64,000 bases of DNA from Spirochaetia bacterium (GTDB lineage: Bacteria > Spirochaetota > Spirochaetia > SZUA-6 > Bin103), in NCBI GenBank assembly GCA_965198005.1, contig CBDAOI010000004.1, forward strand, positions 800,001-864,000, written 5' to 3'. Each line of letters begins with the position of its first letter. Within the stretch, counting starts at the first letter, position 1. Below, piece after piece: positions 18,660 through 33,051 of the stretch. Under the pieces are notes generated by a model. That model did no database searches and had not been told where the DNA came from. It saw only the letters and a program-made list of their open reading frames with translations. Made by a program: the position numbers and the translations under genes.

Positions 18660-19030
18660 GGCTGTATGGTACACCCGGTTTTGGACGGGGCCGTAGGCGG
18701 CCGTGGCGAGCTTGGTTCGGCGATTTTGGAGTTTCGTGGCCAGATTGGGGTTGGCGGCCGCTCCAGCGCAGGCTAGGGCCCGTGTGCGGGAGATGGTGGC
18801 GTGGGTTGGCGCGGGGCCGAGGCGGGCTGTGAAAACCGTGTCAAGCTCCAAACGCCGCTCAACAGCGATTTTTCGATTTTTTTGGAGAGAGCCCCGCGCG
18901 GTCGCACGCGCTCGCACCGCCCTGCGTGACACTTTGTCACCCCTGCGCTGCAATCGTCCTCCAAACCAGATCTTGCCCCTCTGATTCACTCAATACGAGA
19001 CCTACACCCAAACAATTGGAGGAGTCACTT

Positions 19031-20192
19031 ATGACATTCAGAAAGTATCTCGCACTACTGTGCGTTCTCGTCCTCACCGCAACCGCGCTCTGGGCGAGCC
19101 CGGCCGGCGAAGACGAGTCCGATGCCGCCATGGAAATGGAGAAAGAGATGGTGACGGACCCGTCCACCGGCGAGATGGTGACGGCCCCGCGGTATGGCGG
19201 GACCTTGACCTTCGTCAAGACCGGCACCTCGGCGAGTGCCGATATCGTGGTCCCAGGCGGGTGGGCGGAAGCCCTGATCGATCCCGTGCTTGAGAAGCTG
19301 GGTATTGCGGACTCGACGGCGCCACGGGACCAATTCGACTTCGTGTTTCTGTTCCCGCCAGACCACACGAGAGGGGCACTGGCGGAAAGCTGGTCGCAGC
19401 CCGACCCAACGACGGTGGTCGTCAATGTGCGCCAGGGCGTTCGGCGGCATGACAAGCCACCGATGAACGGTCGGGCGCTGACGGCCCAGGACATCGAGTA
19501 CAACTATCACCGTCTGTTGGGACTCGGCAGTGGATTCACCGAGCGAACGATCATGCCTTGGGAACTGCTCGCGGAGGCGAACATAGAATCGGTAACGGCA
19601 ACCGATGAATCGACCGTGGTGTTCAAACTGGAAAGGCTGACCCTCACTATTCTGCCGGCTGTCCTGAACAGTTTCGCCGGCTGGATGTACCCGCCGGACG
19701 TCATCGAGGAACACGGAGACGCGGCCGATTGGAAGAACCTCGTCGGCACCGGACCCATGATGTTGACCGACCGCGTCGAGGGCAGCTCTGTCACCTGGGA
19801 GAAGAATCCCGACTACTGGGGTCATGACGAGAAATACCCGCAGAACCGGTTGCCTTACATTGACCAGTTGCGGGCCCTGATCATGATCGAACCCGCGACC
19901 CGTTTGGCGGCACCGCGCCGGACTTCACAGGCGGTCATCCAGTTTGAAGATTGGCCGGAAGAGGTCAGGAAGGTCTTTACGTACGACCCTGAAGGAGCCA
20001 AAGAGCTGTTGGCCGAAGCGGGCTATCCCGATGGCTTCAAGACCACGATGATCCATCTTGAGCGCTACGATCTGAACTACATACAATTACTCGCGTCATA
20101 CTGGAAAAAGATTGGCGTCGAGGTCGAAATAGATGTCCATTCGCCGCCTTCCCACGCGGCCAAACGAAGTGCGCGAGATTTCGTCATGACGA
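19031..20192 (+). pseudogene. Family-5 ABC substrate-binding protein, internally deleted and 3'-truncated
   Basis: Paralog of 22025-23824; about 90 codons missing at ~19915; runs into a permease fragment. Confidence 0.85.
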
Positions 20193-20400
20193 ATGCTGGC
20201 GGTGTTCATCATTCCCAGCCTGATTCTGGGAACGGCCTCGGCCGCCGCCACCATGCGGATGACGCGCACCATGATGCTGGAGGTGCTGAGGCAGGATTAC
20301 ATCCGCACCGCCTGGTCCAAGGGGCTGAAGGAGCGGGCGGTGGTGGTCCGGCACGCCGTCAAGAATGCCCTGATCCCGGTGGTGACCCTGATCGGCCTGC
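20193..20400 (+). pseudogene. OppB/DppB permease internal fragment
   Basis: [28 protein letters not shown]-loop region. Confidence 0.8.
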
Positions 20401-20478
20401 GTGCCGTGCGGCCGGCGTGACGCTACCCTCCCGATCGGTGTAGGCTGTGATCATCAGGAGTGATGAGGCGATGACGGC

Positions 20479-21351: not shown

Positions 21352-21460
21352 TCGCGCTGATCGCACCTTTCGCACCTTTCGCACCTTGACGGGTGTCGAG
21401 CGTTGTGGTACAGTAACGCGACGACGTGAGACTCGGACGGATGCCGAGTGGCCCGAGCGG

Positions 21461-21603
21461 TTGACGGTCTGCTGCCCGAGTGCAAGAATGCAGCGTTCGG
21501 GGATATTGAGGGATGAGTATGAGGCACCACGACGACAGCCAGCGCAGTGACCGGTTGGCGGTGACGCAGCCGGTGGGCCCCCCGTGGGTCCCCCCCCCCC
21601 CCC
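21461..21603 (+). promoter_or_regulatory. Promoter/short-ORF/poly-C module copy 1 (C14 at 21590-21603)
   Basis: TTGACG-17-AAGAAT with extended TG; ATG 21513; homologous to 26186-26330 and 30370-30739. Confidence 0.6.
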
Positions 21604-21806
21604 GGCCCCTAACCTTTGAAACCGAGAAACAACTAACCGCTCCGGCTGATCGCTCCGTACGCGACCCCGCGCACGCCGTTGCCTTCACCACCGCCGTGGC
21701 TATCGGTGGCACACCACCCCGCATCGCGTTGGCACGCAGGTGCGGACGCCCGTCGAGCGGTCGGTGTTGGCCTGATGGGACGCACCCAGATCAGACCCTA
21801 TTCTCT

Positions 21807-21975
21807 GTCAATTGCCGAAACCTACAGAAAATGGAGGTGCAAATGATACTCAAAGAACCGCACGCGCGCGCGGCGTGAGCCCGGGTGAACCCGGTGAGTC
21901 ACACGCCGCGCGCTTCAGGAAGTTGACTCTATCTGGCTGGTCGCCTGCGTTGCGGGCGCGAGAGTAGCCACGGAG
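21807..21975 (+). promoter_or_regulatory. Conserved structured leader with uORF MILKEPHARAA (21843-21878)
   Basis: Near-identical to 31015-31182; GGAGG RBS; 12-bp stem 21866-21877/21902-21913 enclosing ccggg-TGAA-cccgg. Confidence 0.7.
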
Positions 21976-22024
21976 CGACAAGTCGCTCCCCAATACTTTC
22001 AACATTCCATCGAAGGAAGAAACG

Positions 22025-23824
22025 ATGAAGATATTCTTTACACGGACTTTCGCGGTTGCGTTGGTCCTGGTGCTGACCGCCACCGGCCTCTGGGCCGCTG
22101 GCGCAGAAGAGGACACGACCGCCGCCGGGGAGAAGAGGTATGTCACCGACCCGACCACCGGCAAGATGGTGGTGGCACCACAGTATGGCGGGACAATAAC
22201 CTATGCCAAGGGAGGGACATCGACGGGTGCCGACGTCCTGGTCCTAGGCTCAATGGCAGAAGCCCTAATCGATCCCGTCGTCGAGAAGCTGGGGATGGCG
22301 GACTGGGCAGCGCCCAGGGACGAATTCCAGTTCCTCGGTAATCTCTGCCCTCCAGCCTACACGAAAGGGGGTCTGGCGGAAAGCTGGTCGCAGCCCGACC
22401 CACTCACTATTATCGTCAAAGTCCGCCGGGGCGTTCACTGGCATGACAAGGCACCGATGAACGGAAGGGAGCTGACTGCCCAGGATATCGAGTACAACTA
22501 TCACCGTATCTTGGGACTCGGCAGCGGTTTCACCGAGCCTAGCGAAGCTAGTAAATATGGTGCGTTGTCAGGTGTGAACGTGGAATCGGTAGCGGCCACC
22601 GACAAATATACGGTTGTTTTCAAGCTGCAGGAGCCAAGGCTCACTATTCTGACCGCTATCTTCAACGAATTCACCGGCTTTATGTACCCCCCCGAAGTGA
22701 TCAAGGAACACGGGGACATGCAGGATTGGAGGAACCTGGTCGGCACCGGACCCATGATGCTGACTGACCGGGTCGAGGGCATCTCCGTAACCTTTACCAA
22801 GAATCCCGACTACTGGGGCTACGACGAAAAATACCCGGAGAACCGTTTGCCCTACGTTGACCGGATAAGGGCACTAGTTATGACGGAACCGGCGACACGT
22901 CTGGCGGCACTGCGCGCCGGTAGGCTTGATTACATAGGTCTGATCGGCGCAGCTCAAATAGCGTCTCTCGACCAGGTAGAAAGCCTCCAGAAGACCAACC
23001 CCGAACTCGTGATATATCCGTCTGCTGCTTTCTCGACCACTAGTATAGGCATGAACGTTCAGGCGGAGCCCTTTGACGACATCAGGGTGCGCAAGGCAAT
23101 GCAGATGGCCATAAACCTCGAGGAAATCAACAACGCCTACTATAGGGGTTATGCCGATATCATACCTCAGGGGCAGCTAAGCCGGACTATTTCACAGGCT
23201 GTCATCCAATTCGAAGATTGGCCCGAAGATGTCAAGAAGGTCTTTGACTACGACCTGGAAGGTGCCGAAGCGTTGCTTGATGAGGCTGGATATCCGCGCG
23301 GCGCCGACAGCGTGAGATTTAAGACCGACTTTATGCACAACGAGAGGTACGATTTGAACTATGTACAATTAGTCGCCTCATACTGGAAAAGAATTGGCGT
23401 TGACGTGGAGATTGATGTACAGCCAGGCACGGCCATTGGCGCTAGAAGAAGTGCGGGAGATTTCAGACTCATGCAAGGGGAATCGGCCGGGAAAGTGTGC
23501 CCATGGGGATGGGCAGGGGGGAAGCGCTTTACGGATGTAGCATGGGACTCCTCCAATGTCGACGACCCAGTTTATAATGCCATGGTTGAAGCCGCCGAAG
23601 GCGCCTCCACCATGGAGGAACTAAACAGCATGGTTAAAGAGGTAAATCAGTATGCGATAGAGAACTTCTGGACGCTATTTAGTCCTGTGGCCCCAGTGTA
23701 TTCGGCGGTCCAGCCGTGGATCATAGGTTTCAACGGCGAGATGAGGTTGGGAGAGAATCGATATATCACCGTTTTCACCCGCCTCTGGATCGATCAGGAG
23801 CTCAAGGAGTCGATGGGTTTCTAG
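22025..23824 (+). CDS. Peptide/nickel ABC transporter substrate-binding protein (family 5)
   Basis: Signal peptide, QYGGT, LAESWSQPD, VGTGPM, KNPDYWG, PFDDIRVRKA. Confidence 0.93.
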   Translation: MKIFFTRTFAVALVLVLTATGLWAAGAEEDTTAAGEKRYVTDPTTGKMVVAPQYGGTITYAKGGTSTGADVLVLGSMAEALIDPVVEKLGMADWAAPRDEFQFLGNLCPPAYTKGGLAESWSQPDPLTIIVKVRRGVHWHDKAPMNGRELTAQDIEYNYHRILGLGSGFTEPSEASKYGALSGVNVESVAATDKYTVVFKLQEPRLTILTAIFNEFTGFMYPPEVIKEHGDMQDWRNLVGTGPMMLTDRVEGISVTFTKNPDYWGYDEKYPENRLPYVDRIRALVMTEPATRLAALRAGRLDYIGLIGAAQIASLDQVESLQKTNPELVIYPSAAFSTTSIGMNVQAEPFDDIRVRKAMQMAINLEEINNAYYRGYADIIPQGQLSRTISQAVIQFEDWPEDVKKVFDYDLEGAEALLDEAGYPRGADSVRFKTDFMHNERYDLNYVQLVASYWKRIGVDVEIDVQPGTAIGARRSAGDFRLMQGESAGKVCPWGWAGGKRFTDVAWDSSNVDDPVYNAMVEAAEGASTMEELNSMVKEVNQYAIENFWTLFSPVAPVYSAVQPWIIGFNGEMRLGENRYITVFTRLWIDQELKESMGF

Positions 23825-30369: not shown

Positions 30370-30746
30370 TTGACAGTGCGGCGCGCATATGCAAGGGTGG
30401 CTCGCCTGAGATTCGACGGATGCAGATGAAGCGCGATCACGACAGTCAGCGCAGTGGCCGGTTGGCGGTGGCCGCAACGTCACCACTGCCGGTGGCGGCG
30501 ACGCTGGCGGGCGGCCGGAACGGCCGGAGTCCGCGCTTGACATGGTCAGGCGAGCCTGTGACGATAGGGAGTTCGGGGATCGAACGGATGGTCATAAGGC
30601 GCGATGGCGACAGTGAGTGCAGTCACCGGTTATTGGGGATGTGCGGTCAATCGGCGCCACACATGTGCATAGCTGCGTCTCAACTTCGGAGGGTTCGGGT
30701 GACCTACAACAAGTTAACGCTTACCCCCCCCCCCCCCCCAAAAAAA
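30370..30746 (+). promoter_or_regulatory. Tandem promoter/short-ORF modules 3 and 4 with C16A7 tract (30724-30746)
   Basis: TTGACA-17-AAGGGT (30370) and TTGACA-17-GACGAT (30537), both with extended TG; ATGs at 30420 and 30588. Confidence 0.55.
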
Positions 30747-31014
30747 CGATTTCGAACCGAGAACCAACTAACCGCTGCGGCTGATCGCCCCGAACGCGCC
30801 GCGGCGGGCGCCTTCGCGGTTGGCACGGGGGTAGCGGCCGGCTCCGTGTGGCGCCGGCTCAGTCCACGTTCGTTCACTGGCTACCGCAACCGTCCCGCAG
30901 CCCCGTCCGTCACACCCCCGGCGTTGCCCGCCATTCAGAAGCGCTGCCGCGCCGACCACCATCCGATGGTGGCACACCACCCAGTGTGGGGTTGTGACCC
31001 AGGTCCCGACGTAC

Positions 31015-31182
31015 GTCAATTGCCGAAATCTACGGAAAGTGGAGGTGCAAAATGATACTCAAAGAACCGCACGCGCGCGCGGCGTGAGCCCGGGCGAACC
31101 CGGTGAGTCACACGCCGTGCGCGTCACACAGTTGACTCTCACTGGCCGCCTGCGTTGCGGGCGTGAGAGTAGCCAGGGAGCG
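31015..31182 (+). promoter_or_regulatory. Conserved structured leader with uORF MILKEPHARAA (31052-31087), second copy
   Basis: Homologous to 21807-21975; differences fall in loops or keep G-U pairing. Confidence 0.7.
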
Positions 31183-31230
31183 GCAAGCCGCTGCGCAATA
31201 CTCTCGGAAATCAAACATACGGAGTTACGT

Positions 31231-33051
31231 ATGAATATTGTAATAATCACAAGGGCCTTCGCGATTGCGTTGGTCCTGGTTGTGACCGCGACCGGCGTCT
31301 GGGCCGCCGGCGCAGAAGAGGAGCCGGCAGCCGCTGCCGACAAAGAGACGGTGTTCGACCCCGCCACCGGCCAGACGTGGACCGCGCCAGAGTATGGCGG
31401 GACACTCACGCAGGGCGTTAGGGGCTTTCCCCCAAATAATAATAGTGACGGGTGGTCGGTTCATCCTGGCTGGGCGGCTCACCTCATCAGTGGCGTTAAT
31501 GAGAAGCTAGCCTTCGTCGACTGGGGACAATCCAGGGATATATGGACAGGCACACAGCCTTGGACCGCCGAGATGTTTATAGGGAATCTGGCTGAAAGCT
31601 GGTCAACGCCCGACGACACAACGTTCATCTGGCACATCCGCCAGGGCGTTTACTGGGACAATAAGGCGCCGGTGAACGGTCGGGAGTTCGATGCCCATGA
31701 CGTCGAATATAACTATCACCGCTATTTGGGTCTGGGCGATTTCACCGAAGACGGACCTAGCGCCCATCAGAGTGCTATAACTGCGTCTGGGAGAGCGGGT
31801 GTAGAGATCGAATCGGTAACGGCCACCGACAAATGGACGGTTGTTGTTAAGCTCAAGCCTCACGTCCTTGTGTTGCAGCATATGCTCAACAACTACTTGA
31901 TGATCTACGCCCCAGAGCAAATCGATGAATACGGCGACGCTAAGGATTGGAGGAACCTGGTCGGCACTGGTCCCTTGAGACTGACTGATGTCGTGGAGGG
32001 CAGCTCGGCAACCTGGGAGAAGAATCCTAACTACTGGGGCTACGACGAAAAATTCCCGGAGAACCGCTTGCCCTATATTGACAAGTTAAGGTCCTTGTTG
32101 CTACCAGACGTGTCAGCACGTCTGGCAGCAATGCGTACGGGCAAGATTGATATGCTGAGCAACACCGGCGACGCCTATATACAATCTCTCGACGATGTAG
32201 AGAGCCTCCAGAAGACCAACCCTGAAATCGATGTGTGGCCCACTTATGCCTGGATAGCGGGCGCATTCCTTTTCAACCAGTCTCTGCCGCTCACTGCCGA
32301 CGTCAATGTGCGCAAGGCACTGCAGATGTCAGTGGACCGCGAGACAATTTCCGCTACCTACTATAAGGGTTGGGGAGATCCAACACCTGGTGCGCTATTC
32401 AATCAACGCTTTATAGGGTATTCCTGGCCAATGGAAAACTGGCCCGACGAGGTCAAGCGTGAATATGAGTATCACCCGGAAGAGGCAGAAGCGTTGCTTG
32501 ATGCGGCCGGGTATCTGCGCGGCGCCGACGGCTATAGGTTCAAGGTCAAGCTTGCCAATAACGAGGCGAACGATTCGACCTATCCAGAAATCATCATGGG
32601 GTACTTCGAAGCCATTGGCGTTGACAGCGAGCTTGTTATCCTGACTCGTGCTGAAGTAGGAGCTTCCCAAAGGGCGGACACGCACGAGTGGCACCTAGCG
32701 GATGGGGGATGGATGGGCCTTACAACCCACTTTGGGATCGGGTCGGTAAGCCAAAACATTGATGGCTTCAGCTTCAACAAAGCGAAGGACCCGCGTATGG
32801 AGGCCCTGTATTATGCTGCCGAAGAGACTATGGACATTGAGGAGTATAAGAGTATTCAAAGACAGGCCGATGAGATCACTGTAAGGGAGCACTGGGGCCT
32901 ATCCAAACCCTTCTCCCCTATCGTTTTCGTGAGCCACCCGTGGGTCCAGGGCTATTTCGGTGAAGATTCTTTGGGAAGGGGTGAACGTAATACCTTCTTG
33001 GCCCGCCTCTGGATTGATAGTGAGCTGAAGGAAGCAATGATGGGAAATTAG
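31231..33051 (+). CDS. Peptide/nickel ABC transporter substrate-binding protein (family 5)
   Basis: Signal peptide, EYGGT, LAESWSTPD, VGTGPL, KNPNYWG; GGAG RBS. Confidence 0.93.
   Translation: MNIVIITRAFAIALVLVVTATGVWAAGAEEEPAAAADKETVFDPATGQTWTAPEYGGTLTQGVRGFPPNNNSDGWSVHPGWAAHLISGVNEKLAFVDWGQSRDIWTGTQPWTAEMFIGNLAESWSTPDDTTFIWHIRQGVYWDNKAPVNGREFDAHDVEYNYHRYLGLGDFTEDGPSAHQSAITASGRAGVEIESVTATDKWTVVVKLKPHVLVLQHMLNNYLMIYAPEQIDEYGDAKDWRNLVGTGPLRLTDVVEGSSATWEKNPNYWGYDEKFPENRLPYIDKLRSLLLPDVSARLAAMRTGKIDMLSNTGDAYIQSLDDVESLQKTNPEIDVWPTYAWIAGAFLFNQSLPLTADVNVRKALQMSVDRETISATYYKGWGDPTPGALFNQRFIGYSWPMENWPDEVKREYEYHPEEAEALLDAAGYLRGADGYRFKVKLANNEANDSTYPEIIMGYFEAIGVDSELVILTRAEVGASQRADTHEWHLADGGWMGLTTHFGIGSVSQNIDGFSFNKAKDPRMEALYYAAEETMDIEEYKSIQRQADEITVREHWGLSKPFSPIVFVSHPWVQGYFGEDSLGRGERNTFLARLWIDSELKEAMMGN

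Follow-up and report, generated by a model that had tools for sequence, protein, structure and literature searches.

Two leaders upstream of substrate-binding protein genes

Two genes for peptide-family substrate-binding proteins (SBPs) in a 64,000-nucleotide stretch of a Spirochaetia bacterium genome (GenBank assembly GCA_965198005.1, contig CBDAOI010000004.1, positions 800,001 to 864,000; the window) are each preceded on the + strand by a conserved leader, copy A at 21833–22000 and copy B at 31041–31206. The gene behind copy A (22025–23824) and the gene behind copy B (31231–33051), both also on the + strand, match PF00496 (SBP_bac_5) with E values of 5e-67 and 1e-55, respectively, and permease genes come after both. 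An initial annotation, made from the sequence alone, had placed a near-identical pair of leaders at these sites and had predicted SBPs of this family downstream, and both statements proved correct. Direct reading of the sequence finds GGAGG, ATG, and the same upstream open reading frame (uORF), encoding MILKEPHARAA, in both copies. The copies are 88% identical over 181 nucleotides (nt), and their alignment is nearly unchanged from the Shine-Dalgarno (SD) sequence of the uORF to CAATACT.

The 5′ half of copy A consists of the uORF and a long helix. The SD sequence GGAGG lies at 21833–21837, and an AGGAGGU-like SD is present in nearly all of the 74 full-length copies in the source genome. The uORF (21843–21878, 11 codons plus TGA) runs into the 5′ arm of helix P1 (GCGCGCGGCGUG in RNA, GCGCGCGGCGTG in DNA; 21866–21877), which takes in the last uORF codons and part of the stop, placed in this arm by the initial annotation as well; the TG of the TGA closes the 12-nt arm. 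The 3′ arm, CACGCCGCGCGC (21902–21913), pairs with 21866–21877. Within the 24 nt that separate the arms lie an inner hairpin, P1a (CCGGG-UGAA-CCCGG; 21881–21894), and the sequence GAGUCA (21896–21901), the 5′ strand of a GAGUC/GACUC helix whose partner, UGACUC, follows P1 at 21924–21929. All of these elements, and the CGCCTGC/GCGGGCG hairpin described next, stand in copy A where they had first been marked.

The 3′ half of copy A carries the strands of two further helices, S1 and S2, assigned by helix scoring. The 5′ strand of S1 is CUGGU in copy A and CUGGC in most copies (21937–21941); it is followed by hairpin P2a (CGCCUGC-GUU-GCGGGCG; 21942–21958), the 5′ strand of S2 (CGAGAGUA; 21959–21966), the 3′ strand of S1 (GCCAC in copy A, GCCAG in most copies; 21967–21971), hairpin P3a (GGAGCGAC-AA-GUCGCUCC; 21972–21989), and the 3′ strand of S2 (UACUUUC in copy A, UACUCUC in most copies; 21994–22000). 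The end of an A-rich spacer and the weaker SD sequence AAGGAAG with the ATG of the SBP gene can be read at 22013–22027. In copy B, alignment and profile matching place the SD at 31041–31045, the uORF at 31052–31087, the P1 arms at 31075–31086 and 31111–31122, GAGUCA at 31105–31110, UGACUC at 31133–31138, the S1 strands at 31142–31146 and 31172–31176, and the S2 strands at 31164–31171 and 31199–31206.

A large, lineage-specific leader family

The source genome (4.89 Mb, 66% G+C, four contigs, 90% complete) contains many more copies. A BLASTN search with the leader returned 86 alignments, and a profile built from these copies returned 85 matches, 74 of them full length. The same genome encodes 173 open reading frames (ORFs) of at least 250 amino acids that resemble the window's two SBPs, and 79 of these have this leader, hereafter type A, at their 5′ end. 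Conversely, 78 of the 85 profile matches were assigned to the 5′ end of a same-strand SBP-like ORF; seven were unassigned, several of which are fragments. Type-A copies continue unbroken into a strikingly uniform signal-peptide coding region. When a second leader type (type B, below) is included, about 117 of the 173 SBP ORFs have a pseudoknot-containing leader. The two copies noticed initially have thereby become at least 74 of type A and 47 of type B, and the two-copy observation is part of a large lineage-specific multi-copy leader family.

In a DNA search of 40 related genomes, the leader was found in seven of ten congeneric genomes (four with at least 20 matches, the others with 5, 1, and 1) and, at that sensitivity, in none of 13 sister-genus genomes and none of 17 genomes from other families of the order. 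A strict 26-position pattern found 22, 10, 30, 17, and 2 sites in five congeners, and its reversed control found none. Counts of family-5 SBP genes fall in step with leader counts, from at least 105 in congener G001 and 87 in G007 to 58 and 53 in two congeners without the leader and 22 in one sister-genus genome. The initial annotation had not recognized the element as a known RNA class, in agreement with our finding of no Rfam 15 match at the gathering score anywhere in the window; at E values up to 10, the only match between 21560 and 22060 was osmY (13.3 bits versus a gathering score of 46.9, E 2.4). Literature searches (supplements not covered) turned up no description of this leader, and PMC5737381 contains no mention of sponge, leader peptide, or uORF. 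Sponge metagenomes and metatranscriptomes are among the public runs that match the stretch, which points to a sponge-associated organism, and the presence of Omp85 indicates a diderm with periplasmic SBPs.

The SBP family itself is extreme for a 4.9-Mb genome: in addition to the 173 ORFs counted above, PF00496 matched 133 of 226 candidates. A third SBP_bac_5 gene in the window (18926–20443; PF00496, E 4e-37) differs in its signal peptide and is not preceded by any of the three leader types described here.

Coding-type constraint on the uORF

The start codon of the uORF is ATG in 70, GTG in two, and CTG in two of the 74 own-genome copies (canonical in 72). Among 84 non-redundant copies from relatives, obtained from 80 further loci in five congeners together with loci from the 40-genome search, it is ATG in 63, GTG in 10, TTG in four, and absent in seven (canonical in 77). 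The initial annotation had staked its proposal on conservation of this frame, and the frame is kept across the further copies. The complete peptide MILKEPHARAA is encoded by 37 of the 74 own-genome copies. The position of the stop varies, being TAG at codon 7 in 13 of 74 copies (giving MILKEP or MTLKEP) and at codon 12 in most, and the conserved portion is the N-terminal hexapeptide M-(I/V/T)-L-K-E-P.

Across 153 non-redundant copies, variation in the uORF has a clear 3-nt period and falls in codons 2–6 almost exclusively at third positions. In codons 3–6, minor-allele counts at the third positions are 33, 2, 36, and 24, for a sum of 95, versus 4 over the eight first and second positions. Codons 2–6 contain 95 synonymous versus 26 non-synonymous variant codon cells, and 20 of the 26 are conservative I-to-V or I-to-T changes; of the 45 single changes possible in these codons, 10 are synonymous and 35 are non-synonymous. 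From codon 7 onward, the uORF sequence is that of helix P1, and the encoded residue is unconstrained (H, Y, W, L, E, R, or stop). MILKEPHARAA contains no repeated regulatory codon before codon 8 and no regulatory codon run. We conclude that the first six uORF codons are under coding-type constraint, and we take this as the strongest indication at hand of uORF translation.

Structure of type-A leaders

RNAalifold, run on a MAFFT alignment of the 153 sequences, recovered almost no structure, and mutual information with average-product correction returned few structural pairs, as columns of the SD and spacer that were shifted by insertions and deletions dominated the signal. The named helices were then scored individually. 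P1 is 93–99% paired in the 153 copies (about 97% overall), and its variants, mostly wobble-compatible, comprise 23 C-to-U cells, which keep a G-U pair, versus 6 G-to-A cells; this strand asymmetry argues for an RNA helix on this strand rather than a DNA palindrome. In the same set, GAGUC/GACUC is 94–98% paired, CUGGC/GCCAG (S1) 88–97%, P2a 62–99%, CGAGAGUA/UACUCUCN 54–97%, and P3a 63–94%. In a set of 54 sequences, the full type-A structure is 95.3% paired, compared to no more than 54.1% with slid partners. Helix by helix, pairing in these sequences is 99.4% for P1, 98.9% for GAGUC/GACUC (with wobble variants only), 100% for P2a (with some double changes), 95.2% for P3a (with double changes at two pairs), and 95.2% and 95.7% for S1 and S2, which show little covariation. 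Conservation is lowest in P1a, which is 82.5% paired and missing from some copies. In each of four copies inspected individually, P1, P2a, and P3/P3a appear in the minimum-energy fold.

Within the 3′ half, the strands follow one another in the order CUGGC, CGAGAGUA, GCCAG, UACUCUCG, with P2a in loop 1 and P3a in loop 3, and this interleaved order makes the 3′ half of type A an H-type pseudoknot. The initial annotation had instead drawn a stem of ACTCT with AGAGT around CGCCTGC/GCGGGCG. The enclosed hairpin (P2a) is confirmed, but the outer pair is standard in only 32% of the 153 copies, and CUGGC/GCCAG and CGAGAGUA/UACUCUCG are better-supported partners. Its other proposed pairing, of GAGTCA with TGACTC, is sustained both by the pairing frequency given above and by folds in which the P1 5′ arm is blocked. 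GAGUC, in the P1 loop, and GACUC, after P1, could form either a second pseudoknot or, once P1 has opened, a hairpin. Taken alone, the conservation of type-A leaders is consistent with this structure without being proof of it.

In about one-fourth of type-A leaders, pseudoknot loop 1 holds an additional GC-rich hairpin next to P2a, about 19 nt in length, and a few copies are without P1a; examples of these variants lie at C4:1608803–1608985 and C4:373593–373774 of the source genome (contig:coordinates). Such natural insertions and deletions suggest that the loops tolerate changes.

Type-B leaders and pseudoknot covariation

Among the SBP genes that lack a type-A leader, 37 cluster by upstream similarity. 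Their leaders (for example, C2:761900–762190 and C4:1290482–1290772) start with AAGGAGG and a mini-ORF and end with the same CGAGAGUA...UACUCUCG helix, here interleaved with a different S1 (CCCUCGC/GCGAGGG). A local profile gave 47 type-B matches outside the type-A leaders, and an SBP-like ORF directly follows 38 of these. In an alignment of 27 own-genome copies (A3), 95.3% of cells are paired, compensatory changes occur at five of the eight S2 pairs (one pair is U-A in 14 copies, C-G in 9, and U-G in 3), and the covariation score was reached by none of 500 shuffles.

A covariance model was built from A3 with S1 left out. It found at least 69 matches in the source genome at E values up to 0.01, counted among the best 150 of 3885 candidates, and had matches in six of the same ten congeners and none in the other genera searched. 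This type-B-only model also matched the 3′ halves of type-A leaders, with 27–35 bits. In 50 distinct type-B sequences from seven genomes, aligned by fitting to S2 and the loop-1 hairpin and not to S1, double changes occur at 10 of 20 pairs (46 cells), all five measures lie above every one of 500 shuffles, and slid controls reach at most 56.5% pairing. The smallest natural knot of type B has a loop 1 of 3 nt and a loop 2 of 1 nt, the geometry of a classical H-type pseudoknot, and on this comparative evidence the type-B family settles the predicted fold as H-type. Covariation, which had been suggested at the outset as a check on the element, is accordingly divided, being weak in the type-A helices and strong in the pseudoknot of type B.

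The mini-ORFs of type B are unrelated in peptide sequence to those of type A and are one to eight codons long. Eleven copies encode peptides of an MxPKTGYD type (M-Q/A/P/T-P-K/R-TGYD, MKHPTGYD), three encode MKSPYD, five encode MKL or MKP from GTG, MEN, MQN, and MCRMQN occur once each, and three copies have an AUG-UAG start-stop. The scan reported no start in 12 more leaders (in four, an AUG lies further from the SD; in seven, ATA or another codon takes its place) and no SD in nine. Among the PKTGYD copies, glycine and threonine are encoded by varying synonymous codons. What types A and B have in common is a strong SD, a start codon, a very short frame, and the pseudoknot. The stop lies 9–19 nt before the start of the pseudoknot profile in several type-B sub-classes and inside P1 in type A, and a terminating ribosome would be expected to reach into a helix in both leader types.

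A third leader, type C, occurs at 10 loci (for example, C1:227436 and C4:183283) before SBPs with a MTPRLMLLPLALALVATVTFAS-type signal peptide. It has a poly-C tract and roughly 300 nt of conserved sequence in which small hairpins occur, and a GAGGAGGAG SD immediately adjoins the gene; neither a uORF nor a pseudoknot was seen at these 10 loci.

Conservation and gene conversion

Own-genome leaders have a mean pairwise identity of 0.81, rising to 0.88–0.92 over the uORF start and the pseudoknot core. Identity is 0.59 in the linker between P1 and GACUC and 0.30 in the spacer before the SBP ribosome-binding site. For comparison, third-position identity in 63 SBP genes is 0.65–0.76 in the signal peptide and mostly 0.30–0.65, up to about 0.79, in the mature protein. 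The initial annotation had allowed that a recent duplication could leave the leaders no more alike than neutral DNA, but the leader is much better kept than the synonymous sites of its own genes. The signal-peptide coding region (...TFAIALVLVLTATGLWAAGAEEE..., at 22025–22110 and 31231–31320 and in paralogs) is conserved at the nucleotide level, and the mature domains diverge.

Upstream modules and ribosome-binding-site modules are mosaic among copies. Together with the haplotype patterns considered below, this mosaicism indicates that gene conversion among copies is pervasive, is confined to 5′ ends, and contributes to their uniformity. Gene conversion leaves the codon periodicity of the uORF, the wobble bias of P1, and the compensatory changes of the pseudoknot unexplained.

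Upstream region and transcription

One sigma-70-like match, at 21461–21489, lies upstream of the copy A uORF. Assembled contigs from four RNA libraries in three studies match the leader and the gene, although no strand, end, or level can be read from them. Two RNA-library contigs bridge the 3′ part of the leader into the SBP gene (21938–22078 and 21958–22047) and, with DNA carry-over being possible, lend weak support to co-transcription of leader and gene. No contig covers 21716–21819 or 21300–21507, which is uninformative because repeats break assemblies and the filter drops records; the very high summed contig depth over 21820–21923 stems from the large number of paralogous copies and should not be read as expression.

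The sigma-70-like match lies upstream of a sense-strand poly-C tract. Such tracts, of 14 C at 21590–21603 and 16 C at 30724–30739, precede the leaders of the window by about 240–310 nt, and a sense-strand tract lies 175–515 nt upstream of 35 of the 74 type-A leaders. The source genome has 95 runs of at least 10 C (lengths 10–28), compared to no such run of A and one of T, and 66 of the 95 lie just upstream of same-strand SBP-like ORFs. Directly after the tract is a conserved box of about 35 nt, GAA(A)CCGAGAA.CAACTAACCGCT.CGGCTGATCGC (21618–21653 and 30754–30788), and related boxes stand behind the poly-C tracts of type-B and type-C leaders. Between this box and the leader, copies A and B align poorly. 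The tracts could be phase-variable promoter spacers or Rho loading sites.

A model for leader function

What the leader is and how it might work differ in their support. That the element is a leader is well supported by the associations and alignments above, and we think it quite probable that it is a functional structured leader with a translated mini-ORF. Its mechanism we infer: that the uORF is translated, that translation would change the fold, and that the change would have an output. The reading we favor, at a little under an even chance, is that the leader exerts translation-coupled post-transcriptional control. Under this proposal, a ribosome-loading module, made up of a perfect SD and an AU-rich mini-ORF that encodes M-(I/V/T)-L-K-E-P and ends at or inside the 12-bp GC helix P1, would act together with a second module, the H-type pseudoknot formed by S1 (CUGGC/GCCAG) and S2 (CGAGAGUA/UACUCUCG). 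Since the mini-ORF ends at or inside the P1 5′ arm, a ribosome on it would have to melt P1. Opening of P1 by mini-ORF translation would then allow GAGUC to re-pair with GACUC beside the pseudoknot. The pseudoknot ends about 25 nt before the SBP's own, weaker ribosome-binding site, which lies in the A-rich spacer, and the remodeled leader would affect the fate of the mRNA (its stability or its access to Rho) rather than directly unmask that site. Possible routes are protection by a ribosome parked upstream, a ribosome that blocks Rho, and a factor or ligand that reads the pseudoknot. On the proposal as a whole, a single signal that depends on translation would govern about 117 SBP genes. This specific chain, from ribosome to P1 opening to a changed mRNA fate, is doubtful as a whole. 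Rho itself is present (698 bits; an open frame of 583 amino acids versus a 415-position model).

Fold models bear on parts of this chain. The ribosome was represented by barring all bases from the SD through 12 nt beyond the stop from pairing, and the folds were nested, with pseudoknots outside the model. With the uORF region blocked in this way, in the four copies inspected individually, GAGUC/GACUC formed around the freed P1 3′ arm. A switch in which a ribosome on the uORF opens the SBP ribosome-binding site was rejected in silico, as accessibility of the site was the same in both states (0.444 versus 0.44); among 62 copies, it shifted by more than 0.1 upward in two and downward in one. Three other candidates were set aside on sequence grounds: a −1 frameshift, for which there is no slippery heptamer; UGA read-through or a selenocysteine-insertion-like hairpin, as the linker varies in length and no downstream frame is kept; and sequestration of the SBP SD by the CUCC of P3a, as this SD differs among sub-classes.

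Several observations weigh against translation-coupled control. Seven of 84 relatives' copies and two of 74 own-genome copies have no canonical start, several type-B copies have no AUG, and the start-less copies keep the rest of the element, so the uORF is not indispensable. We found no + strand intrinsic terminator between 21400 and 22100, and the sequence after the last helix is A-rich; in the nested folds of 62 copies, the SBP SD-AUG is unpaired with a mean probability of 0.444 in free and 0.44 in blocked leaders. Searches of the 90%-complete genome found neither RNase J (TIGR00649) nor RNase E/G (PF10150), and the usual targets of 5′ stabilizers are therefore not shown to be present. Within sub-classes, conservation continues beyond 170 nt upstream of the uORF, and the uORF is perhaps not near the 5′ end. 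Covariation in type A is weak, with double changes at five pairs, a count reached by 83 of 500 shuffles, and its helices are mostly invariant. Finally, all four haplotypes occur in 307 of 372 pairs of common variable sites, and with gene conversion at work, part of the conservation of the leader is concerted evolution.

Alternative explanations

Four other accounts draw on the same observations. The pseudoknot might be the functional core, either a small-molecule aptamer or a site bound by a single RNA-binding protein or small RNA, and might as such control translation initiation or decay of all leader-bearing SBP mRNAs, with the uORF auxiliary or merely tolerated. We regard this as unlikely. 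In its favor, the knot is the module common to both leader types, combines compensatory changes with conserved unpaired bases (loop 3 contains a GGCA that does not vary in own-genome type B and is present in type A), ends about 6–30 nt from the SBP ribosome-binding site, and is kept by copies without a uORF start. However, no riboswitch or protein-binding family of Rfam matches even at E values up to 10, the alignments reveal no expression platform, the SBP ribosome-binding site lies outside every conserved helix, loop 3 differs between types A and B, and one ligand would have to serve about 117 SBPs with divergent binding domains. A rather improbable account dispenses with any dedicated device and treats the leader as a structured 5′ untranslated region that was carried along by a burst of SBP duplication, with the 5′ ends (leader plus signal peptide) homogenized by gene conversion and the uORF a passenger. 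The four-gamete violations in 307 of 372 site pairs, the mosaic upstream and ribosome-binding-site modules, the unusual uniformity of signal-peptide codons (0.65–0.76 at third positions), and the tracking of leader copy number with SBP copy number across congeners speak for it. Conversion does not explain the 3-nt periodicity of the uORF, the excess of C-to-U over G-to-A changes in P1, or the compensatory changes of the pseudoknot, nor why a type-B 5′ half of unrelated sequence repeats the design of SD and mini-ORF, and the leader's own linker (0.59) and spacer (0.30) have been free to vary.

Ribosome-dependent attenuation, the mechanism entertained in the initial annotation, is highly improbable in its classical forms, in which stalling on the uORF would choose between terminator and anti-terminator or, as in cat/erm translation attenuation, free the SBP site. 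A strong-SD uORF with its stop in a stem, the competing pairings possible among GAGUC, GACUC, GAGAGUA, and ACUCUC, and a conserved hexapeptide that could be an arrest peptide are what such a mechanism would use. Yet there is no regulatory codon run, the stop position varies, a type-B mini-ORF can be a single codon, and the absence of a U-tract terminator, itself part of the initial annotation, is upheld, with no terminator-like site on the + strand in 21400–22100. Moreover, the predicted accessibility of the SBP ribosome-binding site, which sits about 130 nt away within an A-rich, unpaired spacer, is constant. With no terminator and no change in accessibility, neither classical attenuation nor cat/erm-like unmasking is supported. 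There is very little to recommend an element that acts as DNA, be it a miniature transposable or repetitive-extragenic-palindrome-like repeat or the palindromic operator of a transcription factor. High copy number and a 12-bp inverted repeat are compatible with such an element, but 78 of 85 matches lie at the 5′ ends of same-strand SBP-like ORFs, the copies run unbroken into signal-peptide coding sequence, the arms are 24 nt apart, the alignments contain no terminal inverted repeats (target-site duplications were not looked for), and the strand-asymmetric wobble pattern points to RNA. Translation-coupled control remains the reading that we prefer. A bolder version of it, which we consider speculative and improbable, is a global translation-sensing riboregulator in which the nascent hexapeptide (MILKEP in type A, xPKTGYD in type B) or ribosome occupancy would toggle two serial pseudoknots, possibly with the upstream poly-C tracts, and so decide whether more than 100 SBP mRNAs are completed, kept, or destroyed.

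Significance and comparison with known systems

On the alignments and searches described here, we rate the element as a probable new cis-regulatory RNA motif that is restricted to one lineage and has exceptionally many target genes. Nutrient uptake begins with substrate-binding proteins, and the sharing of one leader design by about two-thirds of some 170 family-5 paralogs points to a single post-transcriptional layer over the uptake repertoire. The element's range covers only part of a single uncultured bacterial genus, and its regulatory function is one that we infer. Dozens to hundreds of natural variants per genome provide a ready-made mutational series for a motif outside Rfam, the role of uORF translation can be tested directly with the start-stop and no-start variants that occur naturally, and the family is a clear case of concerted evolution restricted to the 5′ ends of a gene family. 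If the global riboregulator were real, a single RNA module would underlie, in an uncultured sponge symbiont, a post-transcriptional regulon of unprecedented size.

Leader-peptide attenuators and arrest-peptide leaders include those of the trp/his type, tnaC, and cat/cmlA/erm. Like the trp/his, tnaC, and cat/erm leaders, the element has a short, strong-SD uORF upstream of the gene, a stop or stall site in a stem, and a conserved N-terminal peptide. In contrast to trp/his and cat/erm, it has no intrinsic terminator, codon run, or hairpin over the downstream site, its stop varies, and it occurs in about 74–120 copies per genome rather than one per operon. H-type pseudoknots form riboswitches such as SAM-II/V, preQ1-II/III, guanidine-III, and fluoride. 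The likeness here lies in a compact knot that closely precedes a ribosome-binding site, with stems that covary and loop bases that are conserved; the differences are that the element has no Rfam match, the SD is outside the knot, and the gene context implies no ligand. Surface-protein paralogs of Borrelia and Mycoplasma have upstream homology boxes or shared 5′ regions, mainly as promoter or recombination cassettes for antigenic variation. Those families resemble this one in a near-identical 5′ non-coding region and signal peptide, divergent mature parts, and recombination among copies, whereas here the conserved part appears to be constrained at the RNA level, in its helices and its codon-periodic uORF.

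The closest parallels for the ribosome-loading module are 5′ stabilizers and start-stops. The cryIIIA STAB-SD and erm leaders are stabilizers of this kind, and in Bacillus subtilis hbs, as described in PMC5737220, a ribosome at a strong upstream SD stabilizes the 5′ end of the mRNA. Stabilizers and the present leaders are alike in that a highly structured 5′ untranslated region carries a strong SD far ahead of the real start, in some cases together with a tiny ORF, and the genes here are likely to be highly expressed. They differ in that the known stabilizers depend on RNase J1, whereas RNase J was not found here, and in that the host encodes Omp85 and is not a Bacillus-like monoderm. The start-stops of Escherichia coli described in bioRxiv 10.1101/520783 bind ribosomes and modulate expression of their host genes, being intragenic and of small effect, and PMC13285730 reports that upstream ribosome-binding sites are common in Sinorhizobium. 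The type-B AUG-UAG elements and two- to three-codon ORFs behind a strong SD resemble these bacterial start-stops as far as those accounts describe them; compared to the E. coli examples as given there, the mini-ORFs of this family lie in a conserved leader, are joined to a pseudoknot, and precede about 117 paralogous genes.

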